64,000 nt of DNA. Origin: an uncultured Lentisphaerales bacterium (lineage in GTDB: Bacteria; Verrucomicrobiota; Lentisphaeria; JABSQK01; UBA12247). Below are positions 350 through 63,226 of the stretch, one piece after another. The notes under the pieces were generated by a model. It worked only from the letters and a program-made list of their open reading frames with translations, was not told where the DNA came from and ran no database searches. The position numbers and the translations under genes are program-made. The stretch lies in contig CALSSJ010000017.1 in NCBI GenBank assembly GCA_943788985.1, forward strand, positions 83,795 through 147,794. Reading direction: 5' to 3'. Every line of letters starts with the position of its first letter. Position 1 is the stretch's first letter.

Positions 350-1171
350 TTGACTGCCATGACGGAAAAAGCTGCACAGCTCGAGCAACTGCTCAAAGAC
401 TACGGGAGCATCGCAATCGCCTTCTCAGGCGGGGTAGATAGCACGTACCTGGCTGCGGTCGCACAGCGTGTATTGCCGGGGAAGGTGCTGCTACTGAACG
501 CGCGCTCACCGTCCTTCCCCGCTGAAGAGGCAGAGTTTGTTGCGGAGTTCGCAAAAACTTGGGACTTGCCACTGCGGGTGGTGGAGACGCAGGAACTGGC
601 GATCAAGCAGTATGGCGAAAACTTGCCGTCGCGCTGCTTTTTCTGCCGCACGGAGATGTACAGCCAGCTGAAGCCAATCGCCGAAGAGACGGGGATGGCG
701 GTGCTGGCTGACGGCGCGAATATGGATGACCGCAGTGATTTTCGCCCAGGCGCGAAGGCCGCAAAAAAGTGGGGAATTCGTCACCCGCTGCAAGATGTAG
801 AGCTGACCAAGGACGAGATCCGAGCGTTATCGCGGGAGTTGAACCTGCCGACTTGGGATAAGCCAGCATTTGCCTGCCTAGCATCGCGCATTCCTTATGG
901 CGAAAAAATCACAAAGTCGAAGTTGGACCGCGTCGAACGTGCGGAGATCGCACTGCGAGCACGGGGATTTCGGGTATATCGGGTACGAAGCCACGAGGAC
1001 TTGGCGCGGATCGAACTGGGCCAGGACGAGCTTGGTCGTGCCTTCGGAATGCGTGAGGAGTTGGTGACGGCGATGCGGGATGTCGGCTACGCGTATGTCA
1101 CGCTGGACCTGCAGGGCTATCGATCGGGATCGATGAACGAAGTGCTGGACCTGCCCAAAGTAGAGGTTTGA
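350..1171 (+). CDS. larE: PP-loop ATPase, LarE-like sacrificial sulfur transferase family
   Basis: 273-aa ORF with the PP-loop AFSGGVDSTYLA, CFFCR, and ACLASRIPYG motifs typical of the LarE/TIGR00268 family. The start is TTG 350 or ATG 359. Confidence 0.65.
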   Translation: MTAMTEKAAQLEQLLKDYGSIAIAFSGGVDSTYLAAVAQRVLPGKVLLLNARSPSFPAEEAEFVAEFAKTWDLPLRVVETQELAIKQYGENLPSRCFFCRTEMYSQLKPIAEETGMAVLADGANMDDRSDFRPGAKAAKKWGIRHPLQDVELTKDEIRALSRELNLPTWDKPAFACLASRIPYGEKITKSKLDRVERAEIALRARGFRVYRVRSHEDLARIELGQDELGRAFGMREELVTAMRDVGYAYVTLDLQGYRSGSMNEVLDLPKVEV

Positions 1172-1683
1172 GTGCGGGCATGATCGAGGTCACGCTCATT
1201 CTGGATCGGTTGCGGAGTGCGCACAACGTGGGCAATATTTTCCGGCTGGCCGAGCTGTGCCAAGTTCGGGAGGTCATTACCTGCGGGTATACCGCTGCTC
1301 CCCCACACCCCAAGCTTGCGAAGACCGCACGCGGCTGCGAAACACTGGTGAGTACCCGCCGTTGTGAGACCGCGGCGCAGGCTGTGAGTGAGGTGCAGGC
1401 CGCTGGTGTGACGGTTCTGGCAGTCGAGACCGGGCCTGGCTCTCAGCTGATTTGGGAAGCGCCGCTGACGGCACCTTGTGCCTTTGTCCTGGGGAACGAG
1501 GCGCTGGGGGTCAGCGCCGAAGTGCTCGCCTGTTGTGACGGTGTCGTGAGACTGCCAGTGTTCGGGTTTAAGAACTCCCTGAACGTCGGCAACTGTGCGG
1601 CGGTCATCCTTTACGAGTGCATTCGCCGGTGGTCTCCGGTAGAGCCGCCACGCAACGACCAGGATCAAGAGCGAGAAGCATGA
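1168..1683 (+). CDS. SpoU/TrmH-family RNA 2'-O-methyltransferase
   Basis: 171 aa. Contains the SpoU motifs HNVGNIFR, VLGNEALGVS and NSLNVGNCAAVILYE. It overlaps the upstream stop by 4 nt. Confidence 0.8.
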   Translation: MSAGMIEVTLILDRLRSAHNVGNIFRLAELCQVREVITCGYTAAPPHPKLAKTARGCETLVSTRRCETAAQAVSEVQAAGVTVLAVETGPGSQLIWEAPLTAPCAFVLGNEALGVSAEVLACCDGVVRLPVFGFKNSLNVGNCAAVILYECIRRWSPVEPPRNDQDQEREA

Positions 1684-2703
1684 ACGAAGAGCCAGTCGCG
1701 CAAGATAAATTGCAGCCAATCAGGCGCAAGGCCACGCTCGCTACCCTCGCCATCCTAGCAGTAATGGCGATCGCTGCAGTGCTGTCTGGGCACGACGTAT
1801 TCGACACGCTTGCGCATCTGGCACAGGTGATCTTTATCGGGGCACCGATCGTACTGGTGCTTTTCGCAGCCCGCGTCCCAAGCACAAACCGCAAACAAGA
1901 TCGGCTGGTGCTCACTGCGCTCGGAACGGCGGTAGTCTGCGGTGGCATCGGCTACTACGCGACGCAGGTCGAGCCGTTCTGGCTGGAAGTCACGCACACC
2001 ACTCTCTCCAGCTCGAAGGTATCAAAGCCGGTGCGAATCGCCATCGTGGCCGACATTCAGACGGATCACATCGGCCCGTACGAAGCGCGCGTGTTTCAGG
2101 CAGTGGTAGAAGAAAAGCCGGACCTCATTCTGTTTGCGGGCGATAATCTCCAAGCCCCGCCAGAGAAGCGCGAGCTGCTGCTTGAGACGTTGAATCAGGC
2201 ACTTCGCACGGCAAATTTCGAAACAACTCTGGGGATGGTAGCGGTCCGCGGAAATACGGACTACGCCTCCAGCTGGGAGCAGGCGTACGACGGGCTGGGC
2301 GTGCACTGCCTGACCAATCAAGACGTCCAACTTTCTGAAGAAATTGAAGTGATGGGCCTTGGGCTACGCGAGTCCATCTTTGAGCCGCCAGCCATGCCGG
2401 AGACCAAACATTTTAGGATTATGGTCGGGCATTCGCCAGACTTCGCGCTGGCCAATCCAGATGCAGATCTGATGATCGCCGGTCACACCCATGGCGGGCA
2501 GGTCCGGCTGCCTGGATTTGGTGCCATCGTCTCGTTTTGCCGGGTGCCGCGCGATTGGCTGGCGGGCCTGCACGATGTGAACGGCAAGTGGGCTCTACGT
2601 CTCACGAGGTATCGGCATGGAGCGCGGCCATGCGCCCCGATTGCGCTTTTTCTGCCGCCCGGAACTAGCGATCATTACGCTAGAGCCAGAGCAGCCGTAC
2701 TGA
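1680..2703 (+). pseudogene. Membrane-anchored metallophosphoesterase with an apparent 1-nt frameshift near 2592
   Basis: ATG 1680 overlaps the SpoU stop. Motifs IAIVADIQTDH, FAGDN, RGNTDY and GHTHGG are present. After NGKW the annotated frame becomes nonsense, but the +1 frame reads LYVSRGIGMERGHAPRLRFFCRPELAIITLEPEQPY with a stop at 2701-2703, which is the normal family C-terminus. Confidence 0.65.
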
Positions 2704-2735
2704 CATCAGATTTCCGAGACAGCCGGGGGCCCGCA

Positions 2736-4494
2736 TCATGCGACCCGCGATTCCATGCTCTGGTGGCGCAGAAGTTCGGCGTACTCGCCACCGTCCCGGA
2801 TGGCCAACTCATCATGCGTGCCCTTCTCCACGATGCGACCATCGCGAAAAACCAGAATGATATCTGCATCACGGATGGTGCTGAGTCGGTGGGCAATGAC
2901 GACGGTGGTCACTTGGCCCGTGAGTACCTCGATAGCCCCTTGGACAAGGCGCTCTGAAACAGAGTCCAAGGCGCTGGTGGCCTCGTCCAACACGAGAATG
3001 GATGGTTCTCGCAAAATGGCGCGCGCCAGAGCAATGCGCTGGCGCTGACCGCCGGAAAGCAGGACACCGCCTTCGCCGCACTGAGAGTCATAGCCGTCCT
3101 TTAGCTCCAGGATGAAATCGTGGGCATGGGCACGGCGCGCCGCTTCAACCACCTTGGCCTGTGGGACATCGCCATAGGCATGCACAATATTCTCTAGGAT
3201 CGTCCCACTGAACAGGATTGGGTCTTGATTCACTACCGCAATCTGGCGCCGCACACTCCTCATGTTCAATTCGTTCACGGGGAAGCCATCGATCGAGATG
3301 ACGCCGTCATTTGTCCGGTAGAGACCGAGCATCAGATTCACGAACGTGCTCTTGCCAGCGCCCGACTGCCCAACCAAGGCAACCGTGGTGCCAGCGGGGA
3401 TCTTCAGGTCAAGGTCCATCACCGCGCACTTGCCTTCGTCATAAGCAAACGAGACATGATCAAAGCCGATCTCTCCGCGAACCGTGTCAAGGCAGCGCTT
3501 GCCTTGATTGTATTCTACGTCCGGAGACTCAAGCACTTCGCGGATGGAGCTGGTGGCTTCGGCGAACGCCGTGAGCGTGGGAAAGACGTTTACGATCTGG
3601 ACGAAGTTGTTTCGAATCATGCCGACGTAAGTCACGAACAACATCATCTCGCCGATGGTCAGCGCGCCATCAATCACTTTTGCGGCGGCAAAGCCGAGGA
3701 CAAGAATGTGAAAGCCGATATTGGTGGATTTCACCAGTGCGCTGAACAGCCCTACCTGGGCCTCGGCTTCGGTGGATTTCTCGACAACTTCAGCGCTGAT
3801 GTTGTCGACCCTTCCGACGCTCGAAGCCTTCGTGGCCGTGGAGGCGGGCTAGTAGCGATGTCTGCAAGAAGGTGGATACCGAGGAACTGAGGTCTTCTCG
3901 AGCCAGACGCTCGAAGTGGCGGCTCCGTCGCACGCTGCCCTTGAAGATCTTAACGAAGAACAACAAGACCGGGAAAATAACAAGAAACATCAACAGGACA
4001 CGAGCATTCACGAAGCAAAGCACGCCGACTAGGACACCAAGCATGACGATGGCATTGAAGACGTTGTTCACGAAAACGTTCGCGAACTGCTCCGTGCGGT
4101 CGACATCCACCATGATTTTGGAGTAGTAGCGCCCGCTGTCTTTGGAGTAGAAATAGGTCAGAGACAGCGTTTGTAGACGGCTTACAATCTTATTTCTCAG
4201 GTCACGCGAGACCTCTTTAATCACCCGCACAAAGATCGCTCGTTGCGCAGTGGCAAAGAGCACATTCAAGGCTAAAAGGACCGCCATAATGCCAATCACG
4301 GCCAAAATCCCCCGCTTGTCTTGGGCCGGGATGTAGTGGTCGACCACCACCTTCACCAAAACGGGCATGGCCAGCTGCGGCAACATCGTGTAGATCTGAA
4401 ACGCCAGCGACCAGACAGTGGGCCTGACGTGCCCGCCAAAAAAGCTGCAATAGAAGCATACCGCTTCGCCAAAGCTGGCTTTTTCCTTTGCCAC
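2736..4494 (-). pseudogene. ABC exporter (fused TMD-NBD, MsbA/bacteriocin-exporter type) split by a frameshift near 3805-3815
   Basis: The TMD ORF spans 3790-4494. The NBD ORF spans 2736-3734 and carries Walker A GQSGAGKST, the signature LSGGQRQR and Walker B ILVLDEATSALD. The NBD frame stays open upstream as ...VDNISAEVVEKSTEAEAQVGLFSAL and overlaps the end of the TMD frame (...HGHEGFERRKG). One extra base in the AAGGG context explains the split. Confidence 0.7.
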
Positions 4495-4497
4495 CGG

Positions 4498-5694
4498 CTA
4501 CCTCTTACCCACTAAAAGCATGATGGCGGATTGCTGGCCGACCTGGATCTCGCAGAGCGCACCGCTCCCAACCCGAAGTACATCATGCCCCTCAGTGATG
4601 ACGATCGAAACGTCATAAAAGATCTCGGTACCATCGTACACCCCGTGGGTGGCGACAAAGTGAACCTTGCCGCGGTAAATCTCGTGGCGCAAATAGTTGT
4701 ACAGGTCTGATTTGATCAGTGCGGACTGGCCTAGCTTGATCTCGCTGAAGCGTGATTCTGGGACTCGGCATTTGATCAGCTTCGGCTCGTTTCCTGACAG
4801 GGTGATTAGATCTGTGCCGATCTCGACACGCTGGCTGGTAGAGGCTTGAATGCCCACGACGCGACCGCTGAACGGCGCACGAATCGTCAGTCGTTGCTGG
4901 CTAACTTTGAGCGCGCTCAGCTCAAGTCTCGCTTGCACCAGTTGGTGCTTCAGGCTCCGCTGCTGCCGAGCCACCTGCGCCTCCACCTCGGCGATGTTGG
5001 CTGCTGTGTCATGGTGCTGATAAACCAGATCCCTCAGCTGATCCCGAAGCCTCTGGGCAACGGTCTCCGCAGCCAGTTCCGCACGCCGCAGGTTTAGCCG
5101 AGCGGCCTCGAGCTTGCTGCCAGAGATCACTCCCTCCTCTTCAAGCGACTCGACACGCACCAGCTCTTGGTGCCGGTGTTCCACCTCCAGGCTCGCCTGG
5201 GCCAACGCAGAGCTAGCCGGCATTAGGCCATCAGGCAGCGTGCCTGTGGCTGTTGTTTCCGCCAGCACCTCAGTGATGTCAGCCGTTGGCAGTAGTGACC
5301 TCAGCTGATCCTTCTGGTAGGCGTTCTCCGCGCGGAACTGCGCAAGAGCGAGCCTCGGTGCAGCCTGCTCGTCTGACAACGCTGCAAGTTTTTCCTGGTA
5401 GTGTCTGAGTTCCTGCTCAAGGCTAGAGATTTGAGCTGCGAGCCCCTGAAGATCGGCCAGGATAATCAAGGGCTGGTCGTGTTCTACGTCCCCCCCGTCT
5501 TCGACCAGAATTTCGCGAACCATCACATCCTTCATGGGCGAGCCAACCGTCACTTGGTCAGCTGACTCCACCACCCCGCGCACAATGACTCGCTCCTCTA
5601 CTTGGAAGAGAAGCAGAAAGCCAACTCCCACCGGTACGAGGACAACAGCCATAATTTTGGCGAAGAGATATGACGACGGGGACTGATCACTCAC
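4498..5694 (-). CDS. HlyD-family membrane fusion/secretion protein
   Basis: It has an N-terminal TM segment (IMAVVLVPVGVGFLLLF), a long coiled-coil middle, and a beta-barrel C-terminus (RAPFSGRVVGI...). The stop lies 3 nt upstream of the ABC exporter start. The start is uncertain: GTG 5694 or ATG 5652. Confidence 0.75.
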   Translation of the reverse strand: MSDQSPSSYLFAKIMAVVLVPVGVGFLLLFQVEERVIVRGVVESADQVTVGSPMKDVMVREILVEDGGDVEHDQPLIILADLQGLAAQISSLEQELRHYQEKLAALSDEQAAPRLALAQFRAENAYQKDQLRSLLPTADITEVLAETTATGTLPDGLMPASSALAQASLEVEHRHQELVRVESLEEEGVISGSKLEAARLNLRRAELAAETVAQRLRDQLRDLVYQHHDTAANIAEVEAQVARQQRSLKHQLVQARLELSALKVSQQRLTIRAPFSGRVVGIQASTSQRVEIGTDLITLSGNEPKLIKCRVPESRFSEIKLGQSALIKSDLYNYLRHEIYRGKVHFVATHGVYDGTEIFYDVSIVITEGHDVLRVGSGALCEIQVGQQSAIMLLVGKR

Positions 5695-5985
5695 AAGAAC
5701 GGCAAAACCGGTGCAACTGCACGGGGCAGTTTTGCCAAAGGACCTTCTACAAATACGTTGTTGGCGGCGACTGGGCAGATTTGCAAGGGATCCCGAGAGT
5801 CCGTGAATCTGCCGCCAGAAACGGGCGATAGCTCTGTTTATTATCACCTCAGCAGGATGAATGCAAGCGGTGGGCGCTAAAACCGATGCATTAGAAGATC
5901 GCTTCCGCTGACAAAAGACCGACGATAGGTTTCCTAGCCTGTGGCTTGGTCGAGACAAGATCGAAAAAAAATAAAAAATGTGTGA

Positions 5986-6513
5986 CACACTGCGGTTGAG
6001 GGCAGCTTTTATCCGGGCTCTCCGGACGAGCTGCGATCAGCGGTCAATACGATCCTGCAGATCGACGGCCCCACCCTGGTGGCGTTTCCTCACGAGAACG
6101 CCCTGAATGGCCAGGATTGCTACAAGACCATATCCACGGATTATGGTGAATACTGGAGTGATCCTATCCGCTTCCCCATACCGGTCTGTCACCGGCCTGT
6201 CGCGGAACTCCTGCAGGATGGCCGTATCCTGATCACCTATCGGTACCTGCAGGGCGACGGAGGAACCGAATAGCTGGGGATCCGGGCGCAAAACTTTATG
6301 GCGGCCCTGACCAATGATGCCTCAGCGTTGGCCTATGACCGGAAGATGGCCGCCACCCGCATCCTAGCGATTGACTACGACCGTTCTCCGGTCGCCGATC
6401 TCGGATATTCCGGCTGGGTTCAGTTCGATGACGGCGAAATCTACATCGTCTACGATGCTCCCAAGGGGCAGATCCGAGGGTGTTCTCTACAGCCCACCGA
6501 GTTCGTCCTATAA
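5986..6513 (+). pseudogene. Remnant (C-terminal ~170 codons) of a BNR/sialidase-like glycoside hydrolase with an in-frame TAG
   Basis: A single frame reads ...ILQIDGPTLVAFPHENALNGQDCYKTISTDYGEYWSDPIRFP...YLQGDGGTE-TAG(6271-6273)-LGIRAQNFMAALTND...GYSGWVQFDDGEIYIVY. There is no start codon, and a stop lies at 5983-5985. SxDxGxxW is the Asp-box/BNR signature. Confidence 0.5.
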
Positions 6514-7277
6514 CCTATGACTGTATGGTAGTTTCACGTCCATCATGCGAATTAACAGGGAGCGGAATCTCTTTCAATCTCGCTGGCGCGCGTGCAGCCG
6601 CCGGTCGGGATAGGCAGAATAGGGGTAGGGACGACGCATTGGGTTGCTTCAGACCGTGCGTGTCAGGAAAGCCAGATGTTTAGCGGTGCTGCGGGTTGTA
6701 AAAGCTCACTGAAACCCGTGTTGACGGTCACCCCTAAAGACATTGTCAGGCGAATACGGGTATTCTCGCCACACCGCCTCAGGTTGGGTATTCCACAAGC
6801 ACCGATCTCGAGTGACTGAAGCGAAGTCGTGACCTTGCCATGAGTTTGCGATATCGCGGAAATGAATGTGGCACGTTTCAGCCCCAGGTAAAACGCCGTG
6901 CCAGTGACTCAACGGTATCGATATCGCGAAATCAAGACCTGGATTTCGGAAGAGGCCGGGTCTGAAGCGTCACGCCGCGGCGCCCTATTTCGCAGATGAC
7001 GCCAAGCGCAAGCAGCGGGAGACCGCCGATAAAGAGCATCGTTTTCACCCTCGAAATGGCCTCCGTGTCGACTCACTGTCCATGCTAGGAGCGTCGCCCG
7101 ACTTCAACATCATGGCCAAGGGATGGCCATGGCCGCCAAGAGTAACAGAAAGCCAACCGGCTGGCAAGCGACAATAGTTCGTCATCAGGATAGATTCGGG
7201 TGCTTGGTCCCTTACTTGTCTCCGTTCGGGTTCGTTCAGGTTCGTTGTAAAGAATTGTGCGTCGTGTAGCTTTCGCT

Positions 7278-8291
7278 ATGCAGACCAAATCACAGCCTCC
7301 GCAACCCGCGCTAGCGCTCATCGCTTTTGTGCTCCTCACAGGATCAGCCCTGTTCGGTGTTCTGGCTCTGGCCATGCGGTACTTGCCGTATGAGGTGACG
7401 ATGGCGTTCAAGATGCCGGAGAGTGGCGGCAGCGATCGCGGTGGGGGACGCTCGAAGCTGGATCGGCTGTTTCGCACGCGAGGCGGCGTGCACGCGCTTC
7501 GAGACACCATGCCCAAGAGTGCGCTGGACGCCGTCAAAAGCCAGCAAAGTGCGCGAGAGCGCGGAGCTGGCGAGGGCCTTCCACTTACGGTCTCGTCAAA
7601 GCAGCAGGCGCTATTTCGGCAAGCGCACATGGCGCACCAGTTGCTGGTGCGTAATTTTGGCGAGCCGCTGCACAAGGCATCTGCGGACTTGGCACGGGTC
7701 CCAGTCAAGGCCGATGCCAAGTTTATGCCCTATGAGACGGGGCGCTTCTCGAATGATTTGCTGTGGATGAATCTGGCGCATGAACAGAGCCCGCCGGTGA
7801 TTGAGGAATTGCACGTCAAGAGCCGCTGGTTGGTGGGACAGGACGAAGCATTTTTCGAAGATCTGTTTCATGCGGGCCTGGGGACTCTGAACGGGGGGGA
7901 TGCGAAGTCCGCAATCGACTTTCTGCATCTGGCGCAGCAGGCCTGGCCGGTGACGGACCGCTCCTATGGGTCTGTCCATCTGGCGCTGGTTTCGGCCTAC
8001 GCCGTGGATAATCAACTGGATCCTGTGGTGACGGGTATGGAAGACTTCAAGGAGGTCTATCCTGACTGGATGTACATCGAGCTTTTCGCTAAGGATCTGG
8101 AGGAGTTTCATGACGTCTACGGGGACATCGGGGCGCTTTATGTGCTGCGTGCCCGACTGTCGCAGCTGGTGCATGATGACCGAACGGCGTCTGAGTTGTA
8201 TGAGAAGGCGTTTCGCGCCGGGCTGACGGGCGACAGTGTCCAAGAAGTCAGAGAGTGGCAGGCCGCGGCAAAATCGAGTAGCCCAAAATGA
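7278..8291 (+). CDS. Hypothetical N-terminally anchored protein with a helical-repeat-like C-terminal half
   Basis: ATG 7278. It has a TM segment (ALALIAFVLLTGSALFGVLALAM). The stop overlaps the next gene's start by 4 nt. I recognise no family. Confidence 0.5.
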   Translation: MQTKSQPPQPALALIAFVLLTGSALFGVLALAMRYLPYEVTMAFKMPESGGSDRGGGRSKLDRLFRTRGGVHALRDTMPKSALDAVKSQQSARERGAGEGLPLTVSSKQQALFRQAHMAHQLLVRNFGEPLHKASADLARVPVKADAKFMPYETGRFSNDLLWMNLAHEQSPPVIEELHVKSRWLVGQDEAFFEDLFHAGLGTLNGGDAKSAIDFLHLAQQAWPVTDRSYGSVHLALVSAYAVDNQLDPVVTGMEDFKEVYPDWMYIELFAKDLEEFHDVYGDIGALYVLRARLSQLVHDDRTASELYEKAFRAGLTGDSVQEVREWQAAAKSSSPK

Positions 8292-8983
8292 CTTTTCTCC
8301 TCGCTTCCGGCTGGACCACCCTCCTCTACTTTGGTTTCTTTGTGCGCTCCAAATACCGGACGGTCAAACCGCCGTATGAGCGTTTTGTGCTCTTCGCAAT
8401 GGCTGGCATGCTGTCGACGATTCCTGCGGCCTATTTTAACGCACGGGTGTTGAATGATACCGCGCTGAACTTCTTCGAGACCCCAGACATCAGAATGGGA
8501 GTACTGGGGGTATTTCTGGCGCCGGGACTTGGGGAAGAGTTTTGGAAGATGGCGGCTGGTTTGCTCGTGGTTAGCTGCCTAAATCGGCGGAGTCGCCCGG
8601 TGCAGCCCGCGGAGTGCGTGCTGGGCTTTGCCGTGGTTGGGATGGCGTTCGCGGTAATCGAGAACATCTGGAGCTATGGGGACGGGGGGGCTGCCTATCT
8701 GCTGCTGCGCGGTTTGATCGCCGTGCCGCTGCACACGTCTATGTGCATGCTGCATGGCGTGGGGGTGCTGCTGTACTGGAAAAGGCGCCGCGCCTGGCCG
8801 CTCTATGTGTTTTATCTCACAACGGCGCTGCTGCACGGCCTCTGGGATGTGGCGAGTATCTACGGCAGCAGTGTGCGCGAGATCTGGCTGCCGCTGAGCG
8901 TGATCGCGGTCTACACGCTGGCGATCAGCGTGTGGTGCGCTGTGCCGGAGCGCCAAGCGCAACCGCAAGGGCTTTCCGCGTAG
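8288..8983 (+). CDS. PrsW-family intramembrane metalloprotease
   Basis: Polytopic protein with GLGEEFWK, FAVIENIWSY and PLHTSMCMLHG motifs, characteristic of the PrsW protease family. Confidence 0.65.
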   Translation: MTFLLASGWTTLLYFGFFVRSKYRTVKPPYERFVLFAMAGMLSTIPAAYFNARVLNDTALNFFETPDIRMGVLGVFLAPGLGEEFWKMAAGLLVVSCLNRRSRPVQPAECVLGFAVVGMAFAVIENIWSYGDGGAAYLLLRGLIAVPLHTSMCMLHGVGVLLYWKRRRAWPLYVFYLTTALLHGLWDVASIYGSSVREIWLPLSVIAVYTLAISVWCAVPERQAQPQGLSA

Positions 8984-9968
8984 CACGATCGCAGGCTAGG
9001 TCCTCGAGTTCGTCAACGGGCACCCAGCGATGCGGCTTAGCGACGGCTGCGAACTCCGCAAAACCTTGAAGAACGGAAAGTGTCAGCCGAAAGTGGGTGT
9101 AGACATGGACGACTGCCTGAAGCTCTTCGCTGCGTTGCAGGGCGATTCCAAGGGCGGCAAGCGCCTCGCTCAAGCTGGTTTGATCTGCTGCGGTAGGCAG
9201 CTCCCAGAGTCCGCCCAGAAAACCATCGGTGGGCCGCTGGTGCATCAATACGCCTTGGTCTGTCGCTAGACACACCGCAACCTTCTCGCGCTCCGGAGAC
9301 GGTGGCCGCTTTGGCAGATTCGGCAATTGCTCGACGGTGCCTTCTTCGAAAGCAACACACCAGGTCCGACAGGGGCAGGACAGGCACGCGGGCGAGCGCG
9401 GGGTACAGACGAGCGCCCCGATCTCCATGATCGCCTGATTAAAGGCGTTGGCGCAGTTTTCTTGGATGGCTGGCAAGAGTTGCTGACGCAGTGCGCGTTT
9501 TGCCTTCGGCCGAGTGAGGTCTTCGGCGAGTCCTAAGAGCCGTGAGCTGACGCGAATGACGTTTCCGTCGATGACTGGTTCAGGCTCGCCAAAACAGATG
9601 CTGGCGATGGCCGCAGATGTGTAATCGCCGATTCCTTTGAGTTTACGGAGTTCGCAAGCGCTCCGAGGGAACTCGCCCAAGTCGCTGACTTGGCGGGCGG
9701 CGGCGTGGAGATTACGCGCGCGAGAGTAGTAGCCCAGCCCTTCCCAGGCCTTGAGCACATCATCGAGCGGTGCCTCAGCCAGGGCCTGCAGCGTTGGGAA
9801 GCGGGCCATGAAGCGCTCGTAGTAGGGAATAGCGGCCACGACGCGGGTCTGCTGCAGCATGATCTCGCTCACCCATACTCGGTAGGGATCGCGCGTCTGC
9901 CGCCATGGCAAGTCTCTGCCTTCGCGCCGATACCAATCCACCAGGGCGGCTGCCCATTCTGTTGCCAT
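8925..9968 (-). CDS. mutY: A/G-specific adenine DNA glycosylase
   Basis: Contains WYRREGRDLPWRQTRDPYRVWVSEIMLQQTRV, the HhH-GPD region, an Fe-S Cys cluster (CTPRSPACLSCPCRTWC) and a C-terminal NUDIX-like domain. The likely start is ATG 9968. Confidence 0.9.
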   Translation of the reverse strand: MATEWAAALVDWYRREGRDLPWRQTRDPYRVWVSEIMLQQTRVVAAIPYYERFMARFPTLQALAEAPLDDVLKAWEGLGYYSRARNLHAAARQVSDLGEFPRSACELRKLKGIGDYTSAAIASICFGEPEPVIDGNVIRVSSRLLGLAEDLTRPKAKRALRQQLLPAIQENCANAFNQAIMEIGALVCTPRSPACLSCPCRTWCVAFEEGTVEQLPNLPKRPPSPEREKVAVCLATDQGVLMHQRPTDGFLGGLWELPTAADQTSLSEALAALGIALQRSEELQAVVHVYTHFRLTLSVLQGFAEFAAVAKPHRWVPVDELEDLACDRATRKALAVALGAPAQRTTR

Positions 9969-10104
9969 TTTTGTACTTCCCGACTGTGCTCTGACAATTT
10001 CGTGACAACTGGAGGGCCTTTCCGAGGCAAGCTTCATCTTGGCATCGTTTCTGCATAGGTCCAATTGGACGAGGTCGATTTACCTAAATGAACCGAGATT
10101 GACC

Positions 10105-11376
10105 ATGGTTGGAAGACGAATGATTATTATTGCCCGGGCAGATCCGATTATCTGCAGGCACGCGGCAGAAGCGCGCAACTTGGCGGAGGCAGCGCTGCAG
10201 GGCGGATTCGAGCAGGTGCGGATTGTGACCTGGCCACTGGCTACGATTCTGGAAAGCACCCTGCCCTGCAAGCAACTATCGCGCATTTCTCCGTACTCGG
10301 AAGGGATCGTGGTGGACCGGCCCGAGGCCTTGGCTGGCAGCCAAGTGCTGGACGGCCGCCTGCTGCAAGCGATGACCGGGCACGTGAGCGAGATGCTGAT
10401 GGATGGCGTACCGACCACTATCGTGTCGCTTTATCTGGTGCCACATGCCCAGGTGGCGGTAGATGCGGTGCAGTCGGTGCGGCGCTCGGGCGTGCAGCCT
10501 GATGTGCACACAATCGCGGAAGCAGTCGGATCTGATGTCACCGGCATCGTCCGCTGTGCGCTGGCAAGCGGGCATTTCGGGGCAGCACAACAAGTGCTGG
10601 GGACATTCCTGGCCAATGATTGTCCGGTGGCGGTCTCTGAGTATACGCGCTCGATCATTATCGACCACGCGACGGAGGTCGATCATGCGCTGGGTACGCA
10701 CTATGCCCCGCAGATGGGCGCCCGCCTGCGCGTGAGCTACCCCGCGATTGATACGGCTTCGTTTATCAACGCGGAAAGCAACCGGGATTTGATCAGCCAG
10801 ACGCTGGCTCGCTACCGATTGTTGGAGGGCAAGTTCATCCTGTTTCTATCGCGGGTATTGGAGGCCAAGGGAGTCGCCGACCTGATCGAGGGCTATCGCC
10901 GCAGTAAACTGTATGGCATGGTCCCGTTGGTGATCGCCGGGACAGGGGACTTTCTGGAACAGGCACAGGCACTGGCCACCGGCGACGAGCAGACGATCAT
11001 GTTTCTGGGTGCGGTGGATGAGCAGGAGAAGCGGGCGTTGATGCACGGCTGCGGGGCGTTTGCGCTTCCCACTAAATCTCTGCCTGACTGTACGGCGACA
11101 TTCGCCGTAGCGATCGCCGAGAAGATGCTCTCCGGCGGCAGCGGCCCGGTGATCACGACGCGCGTGGGTGGCGCCTGCGAGGCCACGGGCGATCACTGTC
11201 TTTATGTGAGCCCGGGAAGACCAGACGAGATCGCGGCGAGTCTAGAGCGGGCGCTCCTCCTGATGTCGCTGGATGCAAGACGTGAATTGAGTGAGAGCGC
11301 CCGCAGCTATGCGATGCAGTTCGATTGTGCCCGGGTGCTAAATAATCTGCTGGGGACTCTGCTGCGAGCAGCCTGA
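10105..11376 (+). CDS. Glycosyltransferase, GT4 (GT-B) family
   Basis: The C-terminal half reads FILFLSRVLEAKGV...LVIAGTGD...FLGAVDEQEKRALMHGCGAFALP...FAVAIAEKM, which is the EX7E-type region. Confidence 0.65.
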   Translation: MVGRRMIIIARADPIICRHAAEARNLAEAALQGGFEQVRIVTWPLATILESTLPCKQLSRISPYSEGIVVDRPEALAGSQVLDGRLLQAMTGHVSEMLMDGVPTTIVSLYLVPHAQVAVDAVQSVRRSGVQPDVHTIAEAVGSDVTGIVRCALASGHFGAAQQVLGTFLANDCPVAVSEYTRSIIIDHATEVDHALGTHYAPQMGARLRVSYPAIDTASFINAESNRDLISQTLARYRLLEGKFILFLSRVLEAKGVADLIEGYRRSKLYGMVPLVIAGTGDFLEQAQALATGDEQTIMFLGAVDEQEKRALMHGCGAFALPTKSLPDCTATFAVAIAEKMLSGGSGPVITTRVGGACEATGDHCLYVSPGRPDEIAASLERALLLMSLDARRELSESARSYAMQFDCARVLNNLLGTLLRAA

Positions 11377-11402
11377 AGCACGGTCAAGCTCAAGGACTCA
11401 GG

Positions 11403-13727: not shown

Positions 13728-13730
13728 GTG

Positions 13731-14294
13731 TTACGTATCCTGCATGTACAGCTGCCGGTTTTCGTAGAAATAGGACCAGCCGGAATATGCGGTAAACGCG
13801 GCAACGCCGTAGAGCGTCCAGGTCCATGCCACTTGGCAGGTCTCGAGCGGCAGCCAGCCTACCCAAAGTGCGCCGCCGAAGACAAGCCCCAACATCTGAC
13901 AGGTGGTCTTGGCCTTGCCGATGTTGTTCGCGGCCAGGGCGATATTTCGCTTGGCAGCAAGTGAGCGCAGCCCAGTCACGCCAAATTCTCTCGCAACAAG
14001 AACCACAGCGATCCAAGCCGGACATAGCTCGTGTCCGACGAGCGTCACGTAGCTCCCAACCGTAAACACTTTATCCGCGAGGGGGTCGATCAACTTCCCA
14101 AAGTCGGTCACTAAATCGTACTTGCGGGCAATGTACCCATCCAAGATGTCGGTGAACCCGGCCACAATGGCCATGAGGTACGCGATCTTCCACCAGAGCA
14201 AATGCCCCTCGACCGACGCCGGAATCGCAGCAAGTCCCAAGAAGACACCGGTGGCAAGGAAACGGCTGACTGTCAGCTTATTAGGTAAGTTCAT
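13731..14294 (-). CDS. pgsA: CDP-diacylglycerol--glycerol-3-phosphate 3-phosphatidyltransferase
   Basis: Contains NKLTVSRF and the CDP-alcohol motif DILDGYIARKYDLVTDFGKLIDPLADK. The stop lies 3 nt upstream of the recQ start. Confidence 0.85.
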   Translation of the reverse strand: MNLPNKLTVSRFLATGVFLGLAAIPASVEGHLLWWKIAYLMAIVAGFTDILDGYIARKYDLVTDFGKLIDPLADKVFTVGSYVTLVGHELCPAWIAVVLVAREFGVTGLRSLAAKRNIALAANNIGKAKTTCQMLGLVFGGALWVGWLPLETCQVAWTWTLYGVAAFTAYSGWSYFYENRQLYMQDT

Positions 14295-15085: not shown

Positions 15086-15097
15086 CGTTAATTCCGC

Positions 15098-43990: not shown

Positions 43991-43999
43991 TTACGCTGC

Positions 44000-49961: not shown

Positions 49962-51827
49962 ATGCCCAAGAAACGCTTCCGCAGCTCCCGTACCACACAG
50001 GGGCGCCACATGGCAGGCGCACGTGCACTCTGGCGCGCCACCGGCTTCAAGACTGAAGACTTTCAGAAGCCCATTATTGCTATCGCCAATTCCTTTACCC
50101 AGTTCGTCCCCGGACACGTTCATCTCCACAGCTACGGCCAGATGATCAAGAAGATGATCGATGATGCCGGCGGCGTAGGCGTAGAATTTAATACCATCGC
50201 CGTCGATGATGGTATCGCTATGGGCCACGGCGGCATGCTGTATTCCTTACCTAGCCGCGAGCTGATTGCCGATAGCGTAGAATATATGGTCAATGCCCAT
50301 GTGGCCGATGGCCTGATCTGTATCTCGAATTGCGATAAGATTACGCCCGGGATGATGATTGGGGCCATGCGCCTGAACATCCCCACGATCTTTATCGCTG
50401 GCGGGCCTATGGAAGCTGGCAAGGCCGAGACCTCCCAAGGCGAAATTTCCTTGGATCTCGTCGATGCCATGGTGATGGCTGCCGATGACTCCGTATCCGA
50501 TGCCGACCTGGACCAAATCGAAGCCAACGCCTGCCCCACCTGCGGCTCCTGCTCCGGTATGTTTACGGCCAATAGTATGAACTGCCTCGCCGAGGCATTG
50601 GGGATCGCTCTGCCGGGCAATGGCACCATTCTTGCCACCCACTCCCTGCGCCGCACGCTCTTCGAACAAGCAGCCACGCGCATCGTCGAGATGTGCAACG
50701 CGCACTATCTCGAAGGCGATGACTCCGTTCTCCCGCATTCGATTGCGAACTTCGCAGCCTTTGAGAACGCCATGGCCTGTGACATTGCCATGGGCGGCTC
50801 CACCAACACCGTGCTGCACATCCTGGCCATCGCCAGAGCCGCCGGTTTGAACTTCACCATGCAGGACATCGACCGCCTCTCTCGTGGCACGCCCTGCGTC
50901 TGTAAGGTTGCGCCAAGCTCAGATTACCACATGGAAGACATCAGCCGCGCTGGCGGGATCCCCACGATCCTCGGCAAGCTCGAACGCGGTGGCTTTTTTA
51001 AAGGCGAGTGTCTTACCGTATCCGGCGACACGCAGGCCGTCCAGATCCGGAAGAACGATATTCACCTCAAAGCCGACGAGCTGACTGACCACGCTGTACA
51101 ACGCTCATTGTCCGCACCTGGCGGCGTCCGCACCAAGGTCGGCTTTGGCCAAGAAGAACAGTACGCCGAGGCAGACACCGATGCTAAGACCGGCGCCATC
51201 CGTGATGTTGAGCACGCCTACAGCCAGGACGGCGGCCTTTGCGTCCTCTTCGGCAACATTGCCCAGGAAGGCTGCATCGTCAAAACCGCAGGCGTAGACG
51301 CCAGCATTCACATCTTCTCCGGCCCGGCTCGCATTTGCGATTCGCAGGAAGAGTCCGTCGACCTCATCCTCGGCGGCAAGATCAACGAAGGTGATGTCGT
51401 CATCATTCGCTACGAAGGCCCCAAGGGTGGCCCAGGCATGCAGGAAATGCTCTACCCCACCTCGTATCTGAAGTCGCGCAAGCTCGACAAGCAATGCGCC
51501 CTGATCACAGACGGACGCTTTAGCGGTGGCACATCCGGACTCTCCATCGGCCACGTCTCCCCAGAAGCAGGCGAAGGTGGAAACCTCGGTCTGCTCCAAG
51601 ACGGCGACATCATCGAAATCAACATCCCGCAACGCTCCATCAACGTAAAACTCAGCGACGCCGAACTGGATACCCGCCGCACCGAGATGGAAGCACTTGG
51701 CGATGACGCATTTACGGCTATCGGCCGCGAGCGTGTTGTCAGCGAGGCATTGCAGGCATACGGCCTCATGGCTACATCAGCAGCAACCGGCGCTGTTCGC
51801 GATATCAGCAAGCTGCGCCGCGCTTAA
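49962..51827 (+). CDS. ilvD: Dihydroxy-acid dehydratase
   Basis: Contains [49 protein letters not shown] and [21 protein letters not shown]. Confidence 0.95.
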
Positions 51828-53779: not shown

Positions 53780-54592
53780 GTGGCCCTGGGTACGACAATT
53801 CGTACCTGGCGGCCACTGCACGGCGGTTGCATCGCCCAAGCCTTCCTTGCGGAGTCCGCAACAGATCAATTCTTCGTCAAGCATTGCCCAGCTGGCGCGC
53901 CCGAGATGTTTGCCGCGGAGGCCGCCGGCCTGCGAACGCTTGCGAACTCCGCAACCCTTCGCATCCCGGCCGTCCTCGCCGTCAGCGAAGCATTTCTCGT
54001 CCTCGAGTATGTCGAGCCGGGCACACCTGGCCCAGCCTTCATGCCCGATTTCGGTGCCCAGTTCGCCGCCCTGCACCGCGCCTCCGCAGCCAAATTCGGC
54101 TTCACCGGCGACACTTTTCTTGGCACCACGCGCCAGCACAATGCGGAGTCCGCAAGCTGGCCGGAATTCTTCTACGAGCATCGCCTTGTCGCCCAGCTCC
54201 AGCTAGCCGAGCAAAACCACCTGGCCACGCCCGAGCTTCGCCACGCAATCCGCAGTCTCGAAGCGCGCATCGCCCAGCTTCTCGCCACCGACGAGCCTCC
54301 CGCCCTGTTGCACGGCGATCTTTGGTCGGGGAATTTTCTCGTCGCTCATGATGGCGCCCCCTGCATCTTTGATCCCGCCGTTTACTATGGAAGTCGCGAA
54401 GCCGACCTAGCGATGACCTATCTCTTCGGCGGCTTCGACTCAGCGTTCTACGACGCCTACCAAGAAGCGTGGCCGCTCCCCGACGGCCACGCCCGTCGTC
54501 GCCGCCTCTACGAAGCCTACCACATGCTGAACCACCTCAACCTCTTTGGCTCCAGCTACTACAGCGCGGCCCTCAGCCGCCTGACTGCCTAA
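53780..54592 (+). CDS. Fructosamine/ketosamine-3-kinase family protein (start uncertain)
   Basis: Contains HGGCIAQAF, FFVKH, LVLEYV, LLHGDLWSGNF and READLAM. The frame stays open upstream to at least 53738, and no ATG/GTG/TTG occurs in it before 53780. Confidence 0.8.
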   Translation: MALGTTIRTWRPLHGGCIAQAFLAESATDQFFVKHCPAGAPEMFAAEAAGLRTLANSATLRIPAVLAVSEAFLVLEYVEPGTPGPAFMPDFGAQFAALHRASAAKFGFTGDTFLGTTRQHNAESASWPEFFYEHRLVAQLQLAEQNHLATPELRHAIRSLEARIAQLLATDEPPALLHGDLWSGNFLVAHDGAPCIFDPAVYYGSREADLAMTYLFGGFDSAFYDAYQEAWPLPDGHARRRRLYEAYHMLNHLNLFGSSYYSAALSRLTA

Positions 54593-55951: not shown

Positions 55952-56734
55952 ATGGAATTCAGACCTTGCATAGATCTTAAAGACGGCCGCGTGGTCCAGA
56001 TTGTAGGTGGCTCCCTCTCAGACAGCGATCGCTCCGCCGTGCAAACCAACTTCACGACCGACCGTTCGCCTGCGGAGTTCGCAAACCTGTACCGTGAGGA
56101 TGGCCTGACCGGCGGGCATGTGATCGCGCTAGGGCCGGGCAACCAGGACGCTGCACTCGCGGCATTCGCCGCCTATCCCGGCGGGTTGCAGATGGGCGGC
56201 GGCGTAAACCTGGACAATGCGACCAGCTATCTGGACGCTGGTGCCAGCCACGTCATCGTCACGTCATTCGTCTTCCGGAACGGCAAGATCGACCAATCAC
56301 GGTTAGACGCCCTCATTGGCCGCATTGGCAGCAAGCGGCTGGTCTTGGATCTCAGCTGCCGCCAACGAGACGGCCGCTACTGGATTGTCACCGATCGCTG
56401 GCAGACCTTTACCGATGTCTGCGTCAGCCCCGAGACCTTGGCCCAACTTGGCGGCCAGTGCGATGAGTTTCTGGTCCACGGCGTCGATGTCGAAGGCCAC
56501 CAGGCTGGCATCGAGGAAGAGCTCGTCGCCCTTCTCGGCGAGCATTCTCCGATTCCTTCCACCTACGCGGGCGGCGCCCGCCATTTCGCCGACCTGGAAC
56601 GGGTCAAGGAACTTGGTCGCGGCCGTGTCCACCTCACGATCGGCAGCGCCCTCGATATCTTTGGCGGTGCCCTCCCCTACCGGGACGTCGTCGCCTGGCA
56701 TCAGGCCCAGGGCAATGACACATCCTACCGGTAG
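55952..56734 (+). CDS. hisA: ProFAR isomerase of the eukaryote-like (His6) type
   Basis: [18 protein letters not shown]...TNF...GGHVI.LG...[12 protein letters not shown]...GASHVIVTS...RLVLDLSCR...IVTDRWQ...[17 protein letters not shown]...TYAGG...[11 protein letters not shown] closely follows the yeast HIS6 / plant HISN3 pattern. Confidence 0.75.
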
Positions 56735-61437: not shown

Positions 61438-62408
61438 ACAGGGAAGAAATGTCTCGCTTCCTCGAGGAGTATCGCGATGGCGTCATCAATGAAGAGGACG
61501 CCCGCAAGGTTGCGAGCGCGATTCGTGATGGTGGGGAGAATGCCGCCTGGGTCCTCGGGGAGCTTCAGTTTACGGGCTTTCTCTCCCAGGCACTTAATTC
61601 GATGGATGATGAGTCGTTCGCCCGGAGCTTTATTGAGCGACTTGCCGCGGAGCGTTCGGCCAAGGATTTCAGCCGCGATGTCATTTCGGCGGCCACTGGT
61701 CAGCATCGAGCGGTAGGCCCACAGGGAGAGCTTCCGTTCGGCTTGGCGAGCAATGCGCTGGAAAGTAAAGAGCAGCGCGAGGCTCGGGCAAAGCGCACCA
61801 AGAAATGGCAGTACATCGCCGCCACAGTCGGCCTGATCGGCATCGTCGTCGTCCTCGACCTTATTCCCAGTTCCGTCGATGACCGGATGGGAACGCTCAG
61901 CGAAATCACTACCGGCGTGTCACTGATCCGCCATAACAGAGAAGTCCTGCCGCACAAGAAGGACAAGCAAATCATACTGACGCGCGGTGACTTCATCATG
62001 CGCGGCGACGTGTTGCGCGTTCCCGCTGCGGACTCCGCACGAATTAGGATCTCCGAAAACAGCTGGATCAATCTCTACAACGGAGCAGCGGCGGTGTTCG
62101 CGCCCAACCTCCCCGGAGAGACGAGGGTTCGGGCAGAGGATCGCGAGAACCTGATACTATTGCTCACCGAAGGAATTCTGGAGGCTCTGCTGGAGCCCCG
62201 CAGCCAACCGGTGATACTGGCCACCCCACACACCATCGCGGAGTCCAAAGAAGCCCGCTTCACGGTTACGGTCACAAGGTCCACCAGTGTGGTCTCGGTT
62301 GAATCTGGCCGGGTCGTAATCACCCGCCGCTCGGACGGCCAGAGTGCAATCCTGACCGCCGGAAAAACCACTTATGTCAGCGCCGGTGGGGCGCTGTTAG
62401 TCGAGTAG
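61434..62408 (+). CDS. FecR-like anti-sigma factor
   Basis: Overlaps the sigma stop by 4 nt. Has an N-terminal anti-sigma helix region, one TM segment (WQYIAATVGLIGIVVVLDLI) and a FecR-like beta domain (GVSLIRHNRE...RGDVLRVPA...). Confidence 0.7.
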   Translation: MNREEMSRFLEEYRDGVINEEDARKVASAIRDGGENAAWVLGELQFTGFLSQALNSMDDESFARSFIERLAAERSAKDFSRDVISAATGQHRAVGPQGELPFGLASNALESKEQREARAKRTKKWQYIAATVGLIGIVVVLDLIPSSVDDRMGTLSEITTGVSLIRHNREVLPHKKDKQIILTRGDFIMRGDVLRVPAADSARIRISENSWINLYNGAAAVFAPNLPGETRVRAEDRENLILLLTEGILEALLEPRSQPVILATPHTIAESKEARFTVTVTRSTSVVSVESGRVVITRRSDGQSAILTAGKTTYVSAGGALLVE

Positions 62409-62419
62409 GAGGACAAAAA

Positions 62420-63226
62420 ATGACAAGTCCACACACACGGGTAAACGTAAACACGCTGCATCGCATGAAGGCCAAGGGCGAAAAAATCGCAATGCTGACC
62501 GCCTATGATTTTTACACGGCGCAGATTTTTGACCAAGCAGGCATCGACATGTTGCTGGTCGGTGATACCCTGGGAATGGCCTTTGCCGGGCAGGAGGATA
62601 CGCTGGGCGTGCGCCTGGAACAGATGGTCTACCACTGCGAGATTGTCTCCCGGGCAGCACAGCGCGCAATGATCGTGGGTGACATGCCCTTTCTGAGTTA
62701 CCAGGTCAGTGCCGAGAAAGCGGTCGAAAATGCCGGGGCCTTGATCCAAGACGGCCGCGTACAAGCGGTAAAACTCGAGGGCGGGCGCACCATGGTACCG
62801 GTGATCAAGCGCATTCTTCGTGCCGGCATTCCAGTCATGGGCCACGTCGGACTCACGCCACAATCTGTCCATCGCTTTGGCGGTTGGCGCCTGCAGGGCA
62901 AGACTGCGAACTCCGCAGACCTCGTCCTACATGCCGCCCTGGCACTGGAAGACGCGGGCTGTTTTGCCGTAGTCCTGGAAGCGATTCCAGCAGAACTGGC
63001 AGACCAGATCACTGAGAAACTCACGATCCCCACAATTGGGATCGGTGCCGGGGTTGGCTGTGACGGACAAGTGCTGGTGACGCCCGACATGCTGGGGATC
63101 ACGGATTTTCGCGCTCGCTTCATTAAACGCTATGCGAGTGTGAAGGACGTACTGAGTCAGGCGGCAGGCGACTATTTGAAGGAAGTGAAAGATGGAACCT
63201 TCCCCAGTTCCGAGAACGAGTACTGA
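62420..63226 (+). CDS. panB: 3-methyl-2-oxobutanoate hydroxymethyltransferase
   Basis: AGGAGG RBS. Contains KIAMLTAYDFYTAQIFDQAGIDMLLVGDTLGM, GDMPFLSY, VKLEGG and GHVGLTPQS. Confidence 0.95.
   Translation: MTSPHTRVNVNTLHRMKAKGEKIAMLTAYDFYTAQIFDQAGIDMLLVGDTLGMAFAGQEDTLGVRLEQMVYHCEIVSRAAQRAMIVGDMPFLSYQVSAEKAVENAGALIQDGRVQAVKLEGGRTMVPVIKRILRAGIPVMGHVGLTPQSVHRFGGWRLQGKTANSADLVLHAALALEDAGCFAVVLEAIPAELADQITEKLTIPTIGIGAGVGCDGQVLVTPDMLGITDFRARFIKRYASVKDVLSQAAGDYLKEVKDGTFPSSENEY

Follow-up and report, generated by a model that had tools for sequence, protein, structure and literature searches.

A degenerate palindrome, TGCGRASTYCGCA, is hyper-abundant in a 64-kb stretch of DNA from an uncultured Lentisphaerales bacterium (contig CALSSJ010000017.1, positions 83,795 to 147,794; the whole stretch is here called the window), in other loci of the same genome and in part of the Lentisphaerota. 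The word, whose longer form is the 15-mer tTGCG-RASTY-CGCAa, is almost certainly a signal in duplex DNA rather than a peptide or RNA motif, and it probably depends on a recognition system specific to certain lineages. By analogy with the uptake signal sequences (USS) of Pasteurellaceae, the DNA uptake sequences (DUS) of Neisseriaceae and the highly iterated palindrome HIP1 of cyanobacteria, it is best read as being kept up by drive or selection.

The window contains 21 exact matches, about one per 3 kb, which would place the genome-wide copy number on the order of 1,000. All 21 start coordinates listed in an earlier sequence-only reading of this DNA were exact matches. None was found across 100 dinucleotide-preserving shuffles of the window. 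A gene list was compiled by coding potential followed by a Pfam check, and codons were shuffled within genes in two ways, either by permuting synonymous codons with the protein kept or by permuting codon order. New copies were essentially nil under either shuffle; the residual two per shuffle are the copies outside the gene list. Over the 17,865 codons of the window, a product-of-codon-frequencies model gives an expectation of 0.013 copies, which the observed number exceeds about 1,500-fold. The earlier estimate of about 0.01 expected copies was borne out under the dinucleotide, codon-order and synonymous-codon nulls, and the excess lies above the at least 10-fold over a composition-aware expectation that marks HIP-class words. 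One-mismatch relatives number 14, against 0.3-1.6 expected from the codon-aware shuffles, while the nine two-mismatch relatives are background (6-10 expected). Clearly, the sequence specificity of the word is sharp. The copies in the window are as follows.

541..553, + strand: exact copy TGCGGAGTTCGCA, PP-loop (LarE-like) gene 350-1171(+), read AEFA after V
7901..7913, + strand: exact copy TGCGAAGTCCGCA, hypothetical gene 7257-8291(+), read AKSA
9048..9060, - strand: exact copy, sense TGCGGAGTTCGCA, MutY gene 8925-10064(-), read AEFA
11661..11673, - strand: exact copy, RecQ gene 11403-13727(-), read AESA
16828..16840, + strand: exact copy, hybrid histidine kinase/receiver gene 16637-18622(+), read AESA
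21083..21095, - strand: exact copy, DSP/PTPase-like gene 21059-21562(-), read AKFA
23130..23142, - strand: exact copy, YdbH/AsmA-like gene 21666-24293(-), read AEFA
33675..33687, - strand: exact copy, iron-containing alcohol dehydrogenase (Fe-ADH) fragment, open reading frame (ORF) 33555-33995(-), read AEFA
37671..37683, - strand: exact copy, TMTC/TPR gene 37062-39422(-), read AESA
39508..39520, - strand: first exact copy of the GT4 glycosyltransferase gene 39415-40611(-), read AEFA
39955..39967, - strand: second exact copy of the same GT4 gene, read AESA
41609..41621, + strand: exact copy, hypothetical gene 40965-42239(+), read ADFA
46687..46699, + strand: exact copy, MetG 45281-47365(+), read AESA
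48942..48954, no strand: exact copy outside any supported gene (the gene before it ends at 47805 and the one after it starts at 49122); the sole non-coding copy in the window
50744..50756, + strand: exact copy, IlvD 49836-51827(+), read ANFA
53848..53860, + strand: first exact copy of the fructosamine kinase gene 53780-54592(+), read AESA
53941..53953, + strand: second exact copy of the same gene, read ANSA
54142..54154, + strand: third exact copy of the same gene, read AESA
56071..56083, + strand: exact copy, HisA-family gene 55952-56734(+), read AEFA
62027..62039, + strand: exact copy, FecR-like gene 61434-62408(+), read ADSA
62905..62917, + strand: exact copy, PanB 62420-63226(+), read ANSA, in a loop of variable length relative to solved PanB structures
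940..47245: span of the 14 one-mismatch relatives, with starts at 940, 1211, 1317, 7682, 9644, 20060, 22311, 23220, 23406, 24165, 33731, 42391, 42430 and 47233; 10 are in the phase of the exact copies (phase 1, defined below)

The ORFs that host 20 of the 21 copies have unrelated Pfam domains, two of them being hypothetical proteins without a Pfam match, and the sequences flanking the copies are dissimilar and not parts of a longer repeat. The copies are therefore spread over unrelated proteins, as the sequence-only reading had held, rather than derived from one duplicated domain; dispersal through unrelated genes and outside longer repeats is also how HIP-class words occur. The YdbH/AsmA-like gene additionally carries four one-mismatch copies in the same phase (22311, 23220, 23406 and 24165). 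A class of one-mismatch relatives had been noted before and does exist, but it comprises 14 members instead of eight, only 10 of them in phase 1, and two coordinates had been off by one (correctly 23406 and 47233). No RNA genes were found in the window by Rfam and tRNA scans.

In all 20 coding copies of the window, on both strands, the first T occupies codon position 3 and the word is read T GCG RAS TYC GCA, here called phase 1. Codon usage alone predicts 59, 32 and 9% for phases 1, 0 and 2. The window's 20/20 exceeds this expectation (0.59^20, about 3e-5) in the expected direction. Peptides of the form A[EDKN][FS]A number 23 in the window proteins against four expected from composition, and all 23 are encoded by the word (20) or by a one-base variant of it (three). 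Since GCG and GCA make up just 30% and 19% of the alanine codons in the window, the commoner synonymous codons are consistently passed over, which shows that the constraint acts on DNA and not on the peptide. The sequence-only reading had reached the same view, and it was also right that the phase shared by both strands is no symmetry artefact.

Metagenomes of the Joint Genome Institute (JGI) were scanned for two copies of the word 80-110 bases apart, a spacing for which fewer than about one match is expected by chance. The scan returned 60 loci, six of which (L100, L104, L113, L139, L146 and L150) have the window's tetranucleotide signature and carry five to eight copies each. Proteins of L100, L104, L139 and L146 were matched by exact look-ups to HAR64588, HAR65918, HAR65604, HAR65362, HAR65360, HAR66091, HAR66280 and HAR65033, whose locus tags, where shown, have the DCR55_ prefix of the same Lentisphaeria metagenome-assembled genome (MAG) as the window. 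L113 was joined to this MAG via L106, which matches it at 99.97% and is on the same contig as L146. The protein record that matches L150 is without accession, and MAG membership of this locus rests on composition. With these loci about 148 kb of the genome was examined (147.6 kb for the anatomy of the copies), half of it ascertained through the word itself.

Window BipA is 100% identical to HAR65673.1 (MAG TPA: Lentisphaeria bacterium). The next BipA in a collection of 5.8 billion proteins has 68% identity, indicating that the species is isolated. No sister species was present in the BipA 90% cluster; because all of its members are at least 99.8% identical, contigs with copies outside phase 1 must come from the same organism, as the exact look-ups confirmed. 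A look-up with PanB returned several marine metagenome contigs that are 99.8-99.94% identical to the window. These contigs (L001-L006) keep all copies, and being near-identical they give no power for a within-species test of selection.

Frames were assigned by coding potential, and the copies were distributed among the phases as follows.

Window: phase 1, 20; phase 0, 0; phase 2, 0; non-coding, 1
L001 tail (9 kb beyond the window): phase 1, 0; phase 0, 1; phase 2, 0; non-coding, 0
Six loci of the same MAG, all copies: phase 1, 20; phase 0, 6; phase 2, 12; non-coding, 2
Six loci without the pairs through which they were found: phase 1, 15; phase 0, 5; phase 2, 6; non-coding, 2

The phase lock claimed in the sequence-only reading thus stands for the 20 coding copies of the window and not for the other loci, where phases 1, 0 and 2 hold 20, 6 and 12 copies. 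Its inference that proteins tolerate only the Ala-x-x-Ala phase fails, as phases 0 and 2 occur inside RecC, 5-enolpyruvylshikimate-3-phosphate (EPSP) synthase and others. Pooling the window with the L001 tail and with those copies of the six loci that were not ascertained gives about 74, 13 and 13% for phases 1, 0 and 2. The three phases are not used equally, nor is phase 1 used exclusively: roughly three in four of these coding copies lie in phase 1, close to the share expected from codon usage. Non-coding copies are rare (1/21 in the window and about 3/62 overall).

Three readings were found inside Pfam-verified genes of the MAG: A-x-x-A (phase 1), [LMV]R[ST][SP][HQ] (phase 2) and C[GE][VL]R (phase 0). 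Among the genes concerned are those for RecC, EPSP synthase, MacB, a sulfatase, a class-V aminotransferase and an AsnB-like amidotransferase. The RecC gene holds three copies. Compatible peptides are motif-encoded in 12/13 cases in phase 2 and 6/6 in phase 0. Nearly all compatible peptides are therefore motif-encoded in every phase, so the word creates the peptides and not the reverse. The phase bias is a filter set by coding tolerance, as has been described for uptake sequences (PMC2817400). The difference in phase between the window and the six loci is real (hypergeometric p about 6e-4, hand-computed; about 40% in phases 0 and 2 after removal of the finding pairs). It may reflect regional variation or an ascertainment effect, as a search based on close pairs may favor regions that are dense in the motif and tolerant of it.

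Two of these loci have close groups of copies. L139 (7607-7810) has four identical copies, TGCGAACTCCGCA, in the same orientation within 200 bp and in two different phases, where a gene for a CarboxypepD_reg/PDZ protein encodes its N-terminal part. In L104 (10542-11118), five copies are found within 560 bp.

The anatomy of the word was examined in 147.6 kb of this organism, which contain 62 exact, 37 one-off and 25 two-off copies. The one-off changes are clustered, with 18/37 at position 6/8 (mostly A to T) and eight at position 1/13, and the GCG/CGC triplets are almost invariant. The predominance of A6 to T or T8 to A among these variants gives a centre RWSWY. This pattern of variable and invariant positions hints at the bases contacted by a putative reader. 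Position -1 is T in about 64% (52-70%) of half-sites, compared with a 20% background, and the word thus extends to a 15-mer. The site can be written tT-GCG-R-[A>T]-S-[T>A]-Y-CGC-Aa. Two half-sites of 6-7 bp form a dyad with a single base between them, and the information content is about 22 bits over 13 bp. A bipartite GCG-N5-CGC site was considered and rejected. The frame is not over-represented beyond the word itself, which wholly accounts for its excess, so the inner bases matter. In the window the half-sites TGCGGA and TGCGAA combine as independent draws (nine GG, 10 mixed and two AA).

Copies originate by substitution, not by insertion, where a peptide was close to one of the word's readings beforehand. 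In MetG, AESA aligns ungapped with ADEA/ADKA of 19 homologs; CELR of the AsnB-like protein aligns with VELR, LRSPQ of EPSP synthase aligns with LRSAA of solved structures, and ANSA of PanB is inside the variable loop. Replacement in the MetG, AsnB-like and EPSP synthase alignments rules out an origin by insertion or from a mini-element. The MetG site also provides a comparison among close relatives, all of which have AESA at this position. Its codons are T GCG GAG TCC GCA in the window and in L158, a motif-rich relative with 70% protein identity. In L157 (78% identity) the site is one synonymous base off (GCC). L159 and L160, both without copies, have GCC GAG TCG GCC and GCC GAA TCG GCC, respectively. 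The same peptide is encoded by the codons of the word only in motif-bearing lineages, and an ancestral peptide was thus recoded into the word. Sites also turn over: this genome has two in EPSP synthase, neither of which is present in the ortholog of L157.

When the count was repeated in related genomes, several Lentisphaerota lineages were found to carry the word and others had none in the regions scanned. Taxon labels are those of the depositors. Dispersed copies are present in Lentisphaerae bacterium GWF2_49_21 (L096, L108 and L135; 50% GC) and in Lentisphaerae bacterium RIFOXYB12_FULL_65_16 (L127; 65% GC), and a polyprenyl synthase gene of a Victivallales/Lentisphaerota MAG (L115) has four copies. 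A sister lineage found through BipA (L089-L091) has one or two copies per 21 kb, in phase. L158 has five exact copies in 9 kb, and L157 has one exact and four one-off copies in 22 kb, a pattern that looks like decay after loss of a maintaining system. The lineages with the word span 43-66% GC. Low-GC lineages have TGCGAA half-sites and high-GC lineages TGCGGA; half-site choice tracks genomic GC, which indicates that the R/Y positions drift with composition.

No exact or one-off copy was found in 1.33 Mb from 80 other genomes (the MetG matches listed, all with at most 59% identity), in about 22 kb around BipA in each of Lentisphaerota ZTH and WC36G and relatives L087, L088 and L156, or at the MetG loci L159 (11 kb, Lentisphaerae GCA_012514915.1) and L160 (22 kb). 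The word is a patchy trait of part of the Lentisphaerota, not of a single species. Like HIP-class words it is shared across a deep clade, with a single site, that of MetG, conserved between species (window and L158). L158 (Ga0535667_0016032), among the closest of the motif-rich MetG relatives, has the NCBI MAG label Rhodothermales. Its contig has a PSCyt2-domain gene, which we take to be typical of the Planctomycetes-Verrucomicrobia-Chlamydiae (PVC) group, and was probably mis-binned under that label.

Several other candidates were set aside. A TTGGAACGTTCCAA pair in L156 (18459-18506, 34 bp apart) was considered as a dialect of the word and rejected as an operator-like pair adjoining a LacI-family gene. 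The loci L094, L102, L147, L151, L118, L124, L125, L144 and L128 were put down to REP-like (repetitive extragenic palindromic) or tandem units and treated as a different phenomenon or chance. In L094 (2026-2248), L102 (11224-11442), L147, L151 and L128 the 13-mer is within tandem/REP-like units ttTGCGGAGTTCGCAcgcccacgtgcgaacc with periods of 35 and 103 bp. Two typed contigs with tandem units are both Chloroflexi, one labelled Anaerolineae and one Candidatus Promineofilum. The 13-mer in such units could reflect chance or a shared recognition protein.

The word is also present on elements that live in word-bearing hosts, one of which has it in concentrated form. A replicon of about 4 kb was assembled twice (L098 and L099) with its segments differently arranged. 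L098 encodes a Rep_1 rolling-circle initiator (1378-2280, minus strand), whose matches all fall below 60% identity (24-31% among the matches listed) and are mostly in Firmicutes plasmids. Positions 2704-3402 hold a non-coding array of 26 copies of cTGCGAAGTTCGCAAa, separated by diverged spacers that alternate between about 10 and about 19 bp, and one further solitary copy of the word is at 603. The array had no match by BLAST against plasmid and phage collections (host search), and the adjacent 209-aa ORF matched nothing in Pfam or PHROG. Two copies are present in L130, a fragment that encodes a Rep3 plasmid initiator. Two viral contigs also carry the word:

L153, regions 1231-1782 and 5182-9074: Mu-like contig that encodes Gam, a MuB-like ATPase and a Mu-type transposase domain; seven copies, four of which are arranged within an HTH_31 gene as two closely spaced in-frame pairs (ADSAKIADSA and ADSAEVADSA)
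L152, 3238-6711: 33% GC contig; within 10 kb it has five exact copies and three one-off ones, most of them close to the ends of genes

Given the likeness to USS and DUS, the reading that we prefer, and hold tentatively, is that the word serves as an uptake or self-DNA watermark. A more specific and slightly less likely form of it is that a palindromic watermark for uptake or self-recognition, read by a dimeric protein and marking kin DNA in part of the Lentisphaerota, evolved independently of HIP1 and USS/DUS and is exploited by plasmids and phages via arrays. Two TGCGRA half-sites around one central base have the shape expected for the site of a two-fold symmetric (dimeric) protein, and such a putative protein would read the word in duplex DNA. 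Point substitutions, many of them synonymous, made the copies where a peptide was already near one of the three readings. Coding constraint picks phase and positions, the Ala-x-x-Ala reading being the cheapest. The pressure that creates and keeps copies would come from a lineage-specific recognition system, gained or lost over time. If word-bearing DNA were more likely to be taken up, kept or recombined, as in the mechanism of USS/DUS, copies would spread by molecular drive and mobile elements would gain from carrying many. The dimeric reader, the molecular drive and the uptake or self-recognition function are what we infer from the patterns described above.

Several points weigh against the watermark. 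No reader protein, methyltransferase or competence machinery was identified, competence genes not having been surveyed, and competence and biased uptake are not known from Lentisphaerota, unlike the hosts of USS/DUS. The word is a dyad and only about 3/62 copies are non-coding, whereas USS/DUS are non-palindromic and enriched between genes. All 20 coding copies of the window are in phase 1, unlike those of other loci in its MAG, a contrast that uniform drive would not predict, though these loci were found through close pairs. The genomic sample is the 148 kb described above, with its ascertained half. Finally, to our knowledge a Mu-like prophage of Haemophilus is without USS, whereas the Mu-like contig here is motif-rich.

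Elhai's model for HIPs, a methylation-linked repair ratchet, was considered. A methyltransferase would read part of the word, and methyl-directed or Vsr-like nicking and repair would bias mismatch correction toward the full palindrome, which itself would be functionless. This account is rather unlikely here. In its GC-rich palindromic form and its GCG...CGC ends the word resembles HIP1 and alternate HIPs, and HIPs co-occur with cognate methyltransferases (PMC4390886). GG-type copies have the centre GASTC, a GANTC-type site, but the AASTT half-site form is without GANTC, is equally used and is dominant in low-GC lineages. Gain and loss of an enzyme pair fits the patchy lineages and the relic-like L157, and the non-random placement of one-off variants (18/37 at position 6/8) is also in keeping with a ratchet. 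However, about 22 bits over 13 bp far exceeds known methyltransferase sites, the 26-site array with diverged spacers on the small replicon is left unexplained, and no DNA methyltransferase was found in a Pfam domain survey of the window genes. For HIP1, site conservation has been argued to favor selection over biased repair (PMC5861425).

It is similarly doubtful that the copies are binding sites of an abundant dimeric nucleoid or chromosome-organising protein, as proposed for HIP1, with replicons and phages tethered to the host nucleoid through clusters. The dyad with 6-bp half-sites is suited to such a protein, and matS/MatP, the Noc-binding sites (NBS) of Noc and the SlmA-binding sites (SBS) of SlmA are parallels at a smaller scale. 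The few copies in non-coding, promoter-containing DNA and the orthologous MetG site kept in L158 are also consistent with it, as is the replicon array, whose free spacers resemble centromere or tethering arrays. The periodic distribution of HIP1 has been read as a link to nucleoid structure (PMC5861425). Yet a bacterial genome has tens of the known organiser sites where about 1,000 copies are estimated here, and those sites show no 1,500-fold excess driven into coding sequence. The sites here also turn over, as the absence of the EPSP synthase sites from L157 illustrates.

It is very improbable that the word is a Chi-like self signal by which a nuclease such as RecBCD, encoded in this genome, is attenuated, so that the chromosome is protected along with rolling-circle replicons, phages and other elements that expose double-strand ends. 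At about one per 3 kb the word is roughly as dense as Chi in E. coli, the MAG has a RecC gene, itself with three copies, and the array is on a rolling-circle replicon, a type of plasmid that Chi protects. However, Chi sites are 5-8 nt, asymmetric, read on a single strand and skewed with replication direction, whereas the word is a 13-15 bp palindrome; its excess is orders of magnitude above any known Chi, and the Mu-like phage L153 already encodes Gam.

Selection on an Ala-x-x-Ala peptide or an mRNA hairpin, or multiplication of one duplicated domain or mini-insertion, is hardly credible: Ala-flanked tetrapeptides fit well in helices and the 15-mer can fold as RNA, though just into a weak hairpin of -4 to -6 kcal/mol, but such explanations are excluded by codons that are fixed despite commoner synonymous alternatives, by three reading phases on both strands, by unrelated host proteins with dissimilar flanks, by alignments without insertions and by relatives that keep the peptide with other codons.

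Parts of the window without the word were also inspected. The longest copy-free stretch (23143-33674; 10.5 kb) contains dnaJ, grpE, an FGGY kinase and two large domainless ORFs, 27513-29237 (-) and 29169-30608 (+). There is no copy at 33.9-37.6 kb. At 33555-37176 a tyrosine integrase (427 aa; 33868-35151, minus strand) adjoins the truncated Fe-ADH ORF 33555-33995 (-), with a 517-aa domainless ORF nearby, and the region looks like an integration scar. A PhdYeFM/PIN toxin-antitoxin pair (54872-55482) and a YhgA-like (Transposase_31) ORF (44441-45151) are both without the word and in housekeeping surroundings.

Hyper-abundant genomic words are rare, and the best-known palindromic one, HIP1, has resisted explanation for about 30 years. 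The word described here is an independent case in another phylum, with a longer and more informative site (about 22 bits). If it is a kin-DNA watermark, it would be the first HIP-like system outside cyanobacteria, with natural lineages of gain, loss and decay. Rich, poor and decaying lineages in one clade, together with the sites on mobile elements, offer a comparative handle on whether such words are watermarks, by-products of repair or nucleoid sites, and phylogenetic profiling across Lentisphaerota could name the reader protein. The word could also serve diagnostically when contigs of Lentisphaerota and of their mobile elements are binned, and as a candidate sequence for vectors in Lentisphaerota, a phylum for which we know of no genetic tools.

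The sequence-only reading could attribute the word to no described system, and in the literature searched we likewise found no paper that contains it or deals with palindromes in Lentisphaerota. Of the known classes, REP sequences, bacterial interspersed mosaic elements (BIME) and miniature inverted-repeat transposable element (MITE)-like repeats are likewise short, abundant and palindromic, but they are intergenic, have a longer conserved unit and spread by transposition, whereas the word is 13-15 bp with unrelated flanks, lies inside coding sequence and is made by substitution. Organiser sites (matS GTGACRNYGTCAC, NBS, SBS and parS) share with the word a 12-16 bp dyad that is often in genes, theirs being read by dimeric helix-turn-helix proteins. 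The length of 13 bases and an R-N-Y centre are further features common to the word and matS. Organiser and operator sites number tens of copies and are regionally confined, whereas the word has the dyad architecture at a far higher copy number.

The sequence-only reading had also likened the word to HIP1 and USS/DUS, and its dispersal, excess, frame bias and encoded-peptide enrichment support that comparison. USS and DUS have a reading-frame bias, are placed at tolerant residues and show the tripeptides that they encode about two-fold enriched (PMC2817400). The word resembles them in having about 1,000 copies per genome, substitution at tolerant positions, frame bias with peptide enrichment and a sizeable one-mismatch class. 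Like them it is shared by some related lineages, missing from others and carried by resident plasmids. It differs in being palindromic instead of asymmetric and in not being enriched between genes or as terminator pairs (1/21 and about 3/62 non-coding). Its tetrapeptide is enriched nearly six-fold, and essentially all of the occurrences are motif-encoded, as opposed to about two-fold for USS/DUS.

HIP1 (GCGATCGC) and alternate HIPs are, like the word, GC-rich palindromes with GCG/CGC ends that are dispersed through unrelated genes. HIP1, too, is commonly read as alanine codons, and its density is about one per 0.3-1.2 kb. The word, at about one per 3 kb, is somewhat less dense, and has site arrays on small replicons. 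It is found in the phylum Lentisphaerota and not in cyanobacteria, and has 13-15 bp with an odd degenerate centre R-A-S-T-Y and about 22 bits, whereas HIP1 is a perfect 8-mer. It has no GATC or CGATCG core and no known cognate methyltransferase. Both are shared across a deep clade that includes lineages without them, and in both single sites are conserved between species. Both have an excess of tens to thousands of fold, and the function of HIPs is unresolved (PMC5861425, PMC4390886, bioRxiv 10.64898/2026.06.24.733823). HIP1 is 15-300-fold over-represented, with conserved sites and phylum-wide occurrence (PMC5861425), and it was reported to increase transformation in a way that depends on methylation and proposed as a phylum-level uptake watermark (bioRxiv 10.64898/2026.06.24.733823). 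The word is therefore filed with the HIP/USS kind of phenomenon, with no claim of membership in either family.

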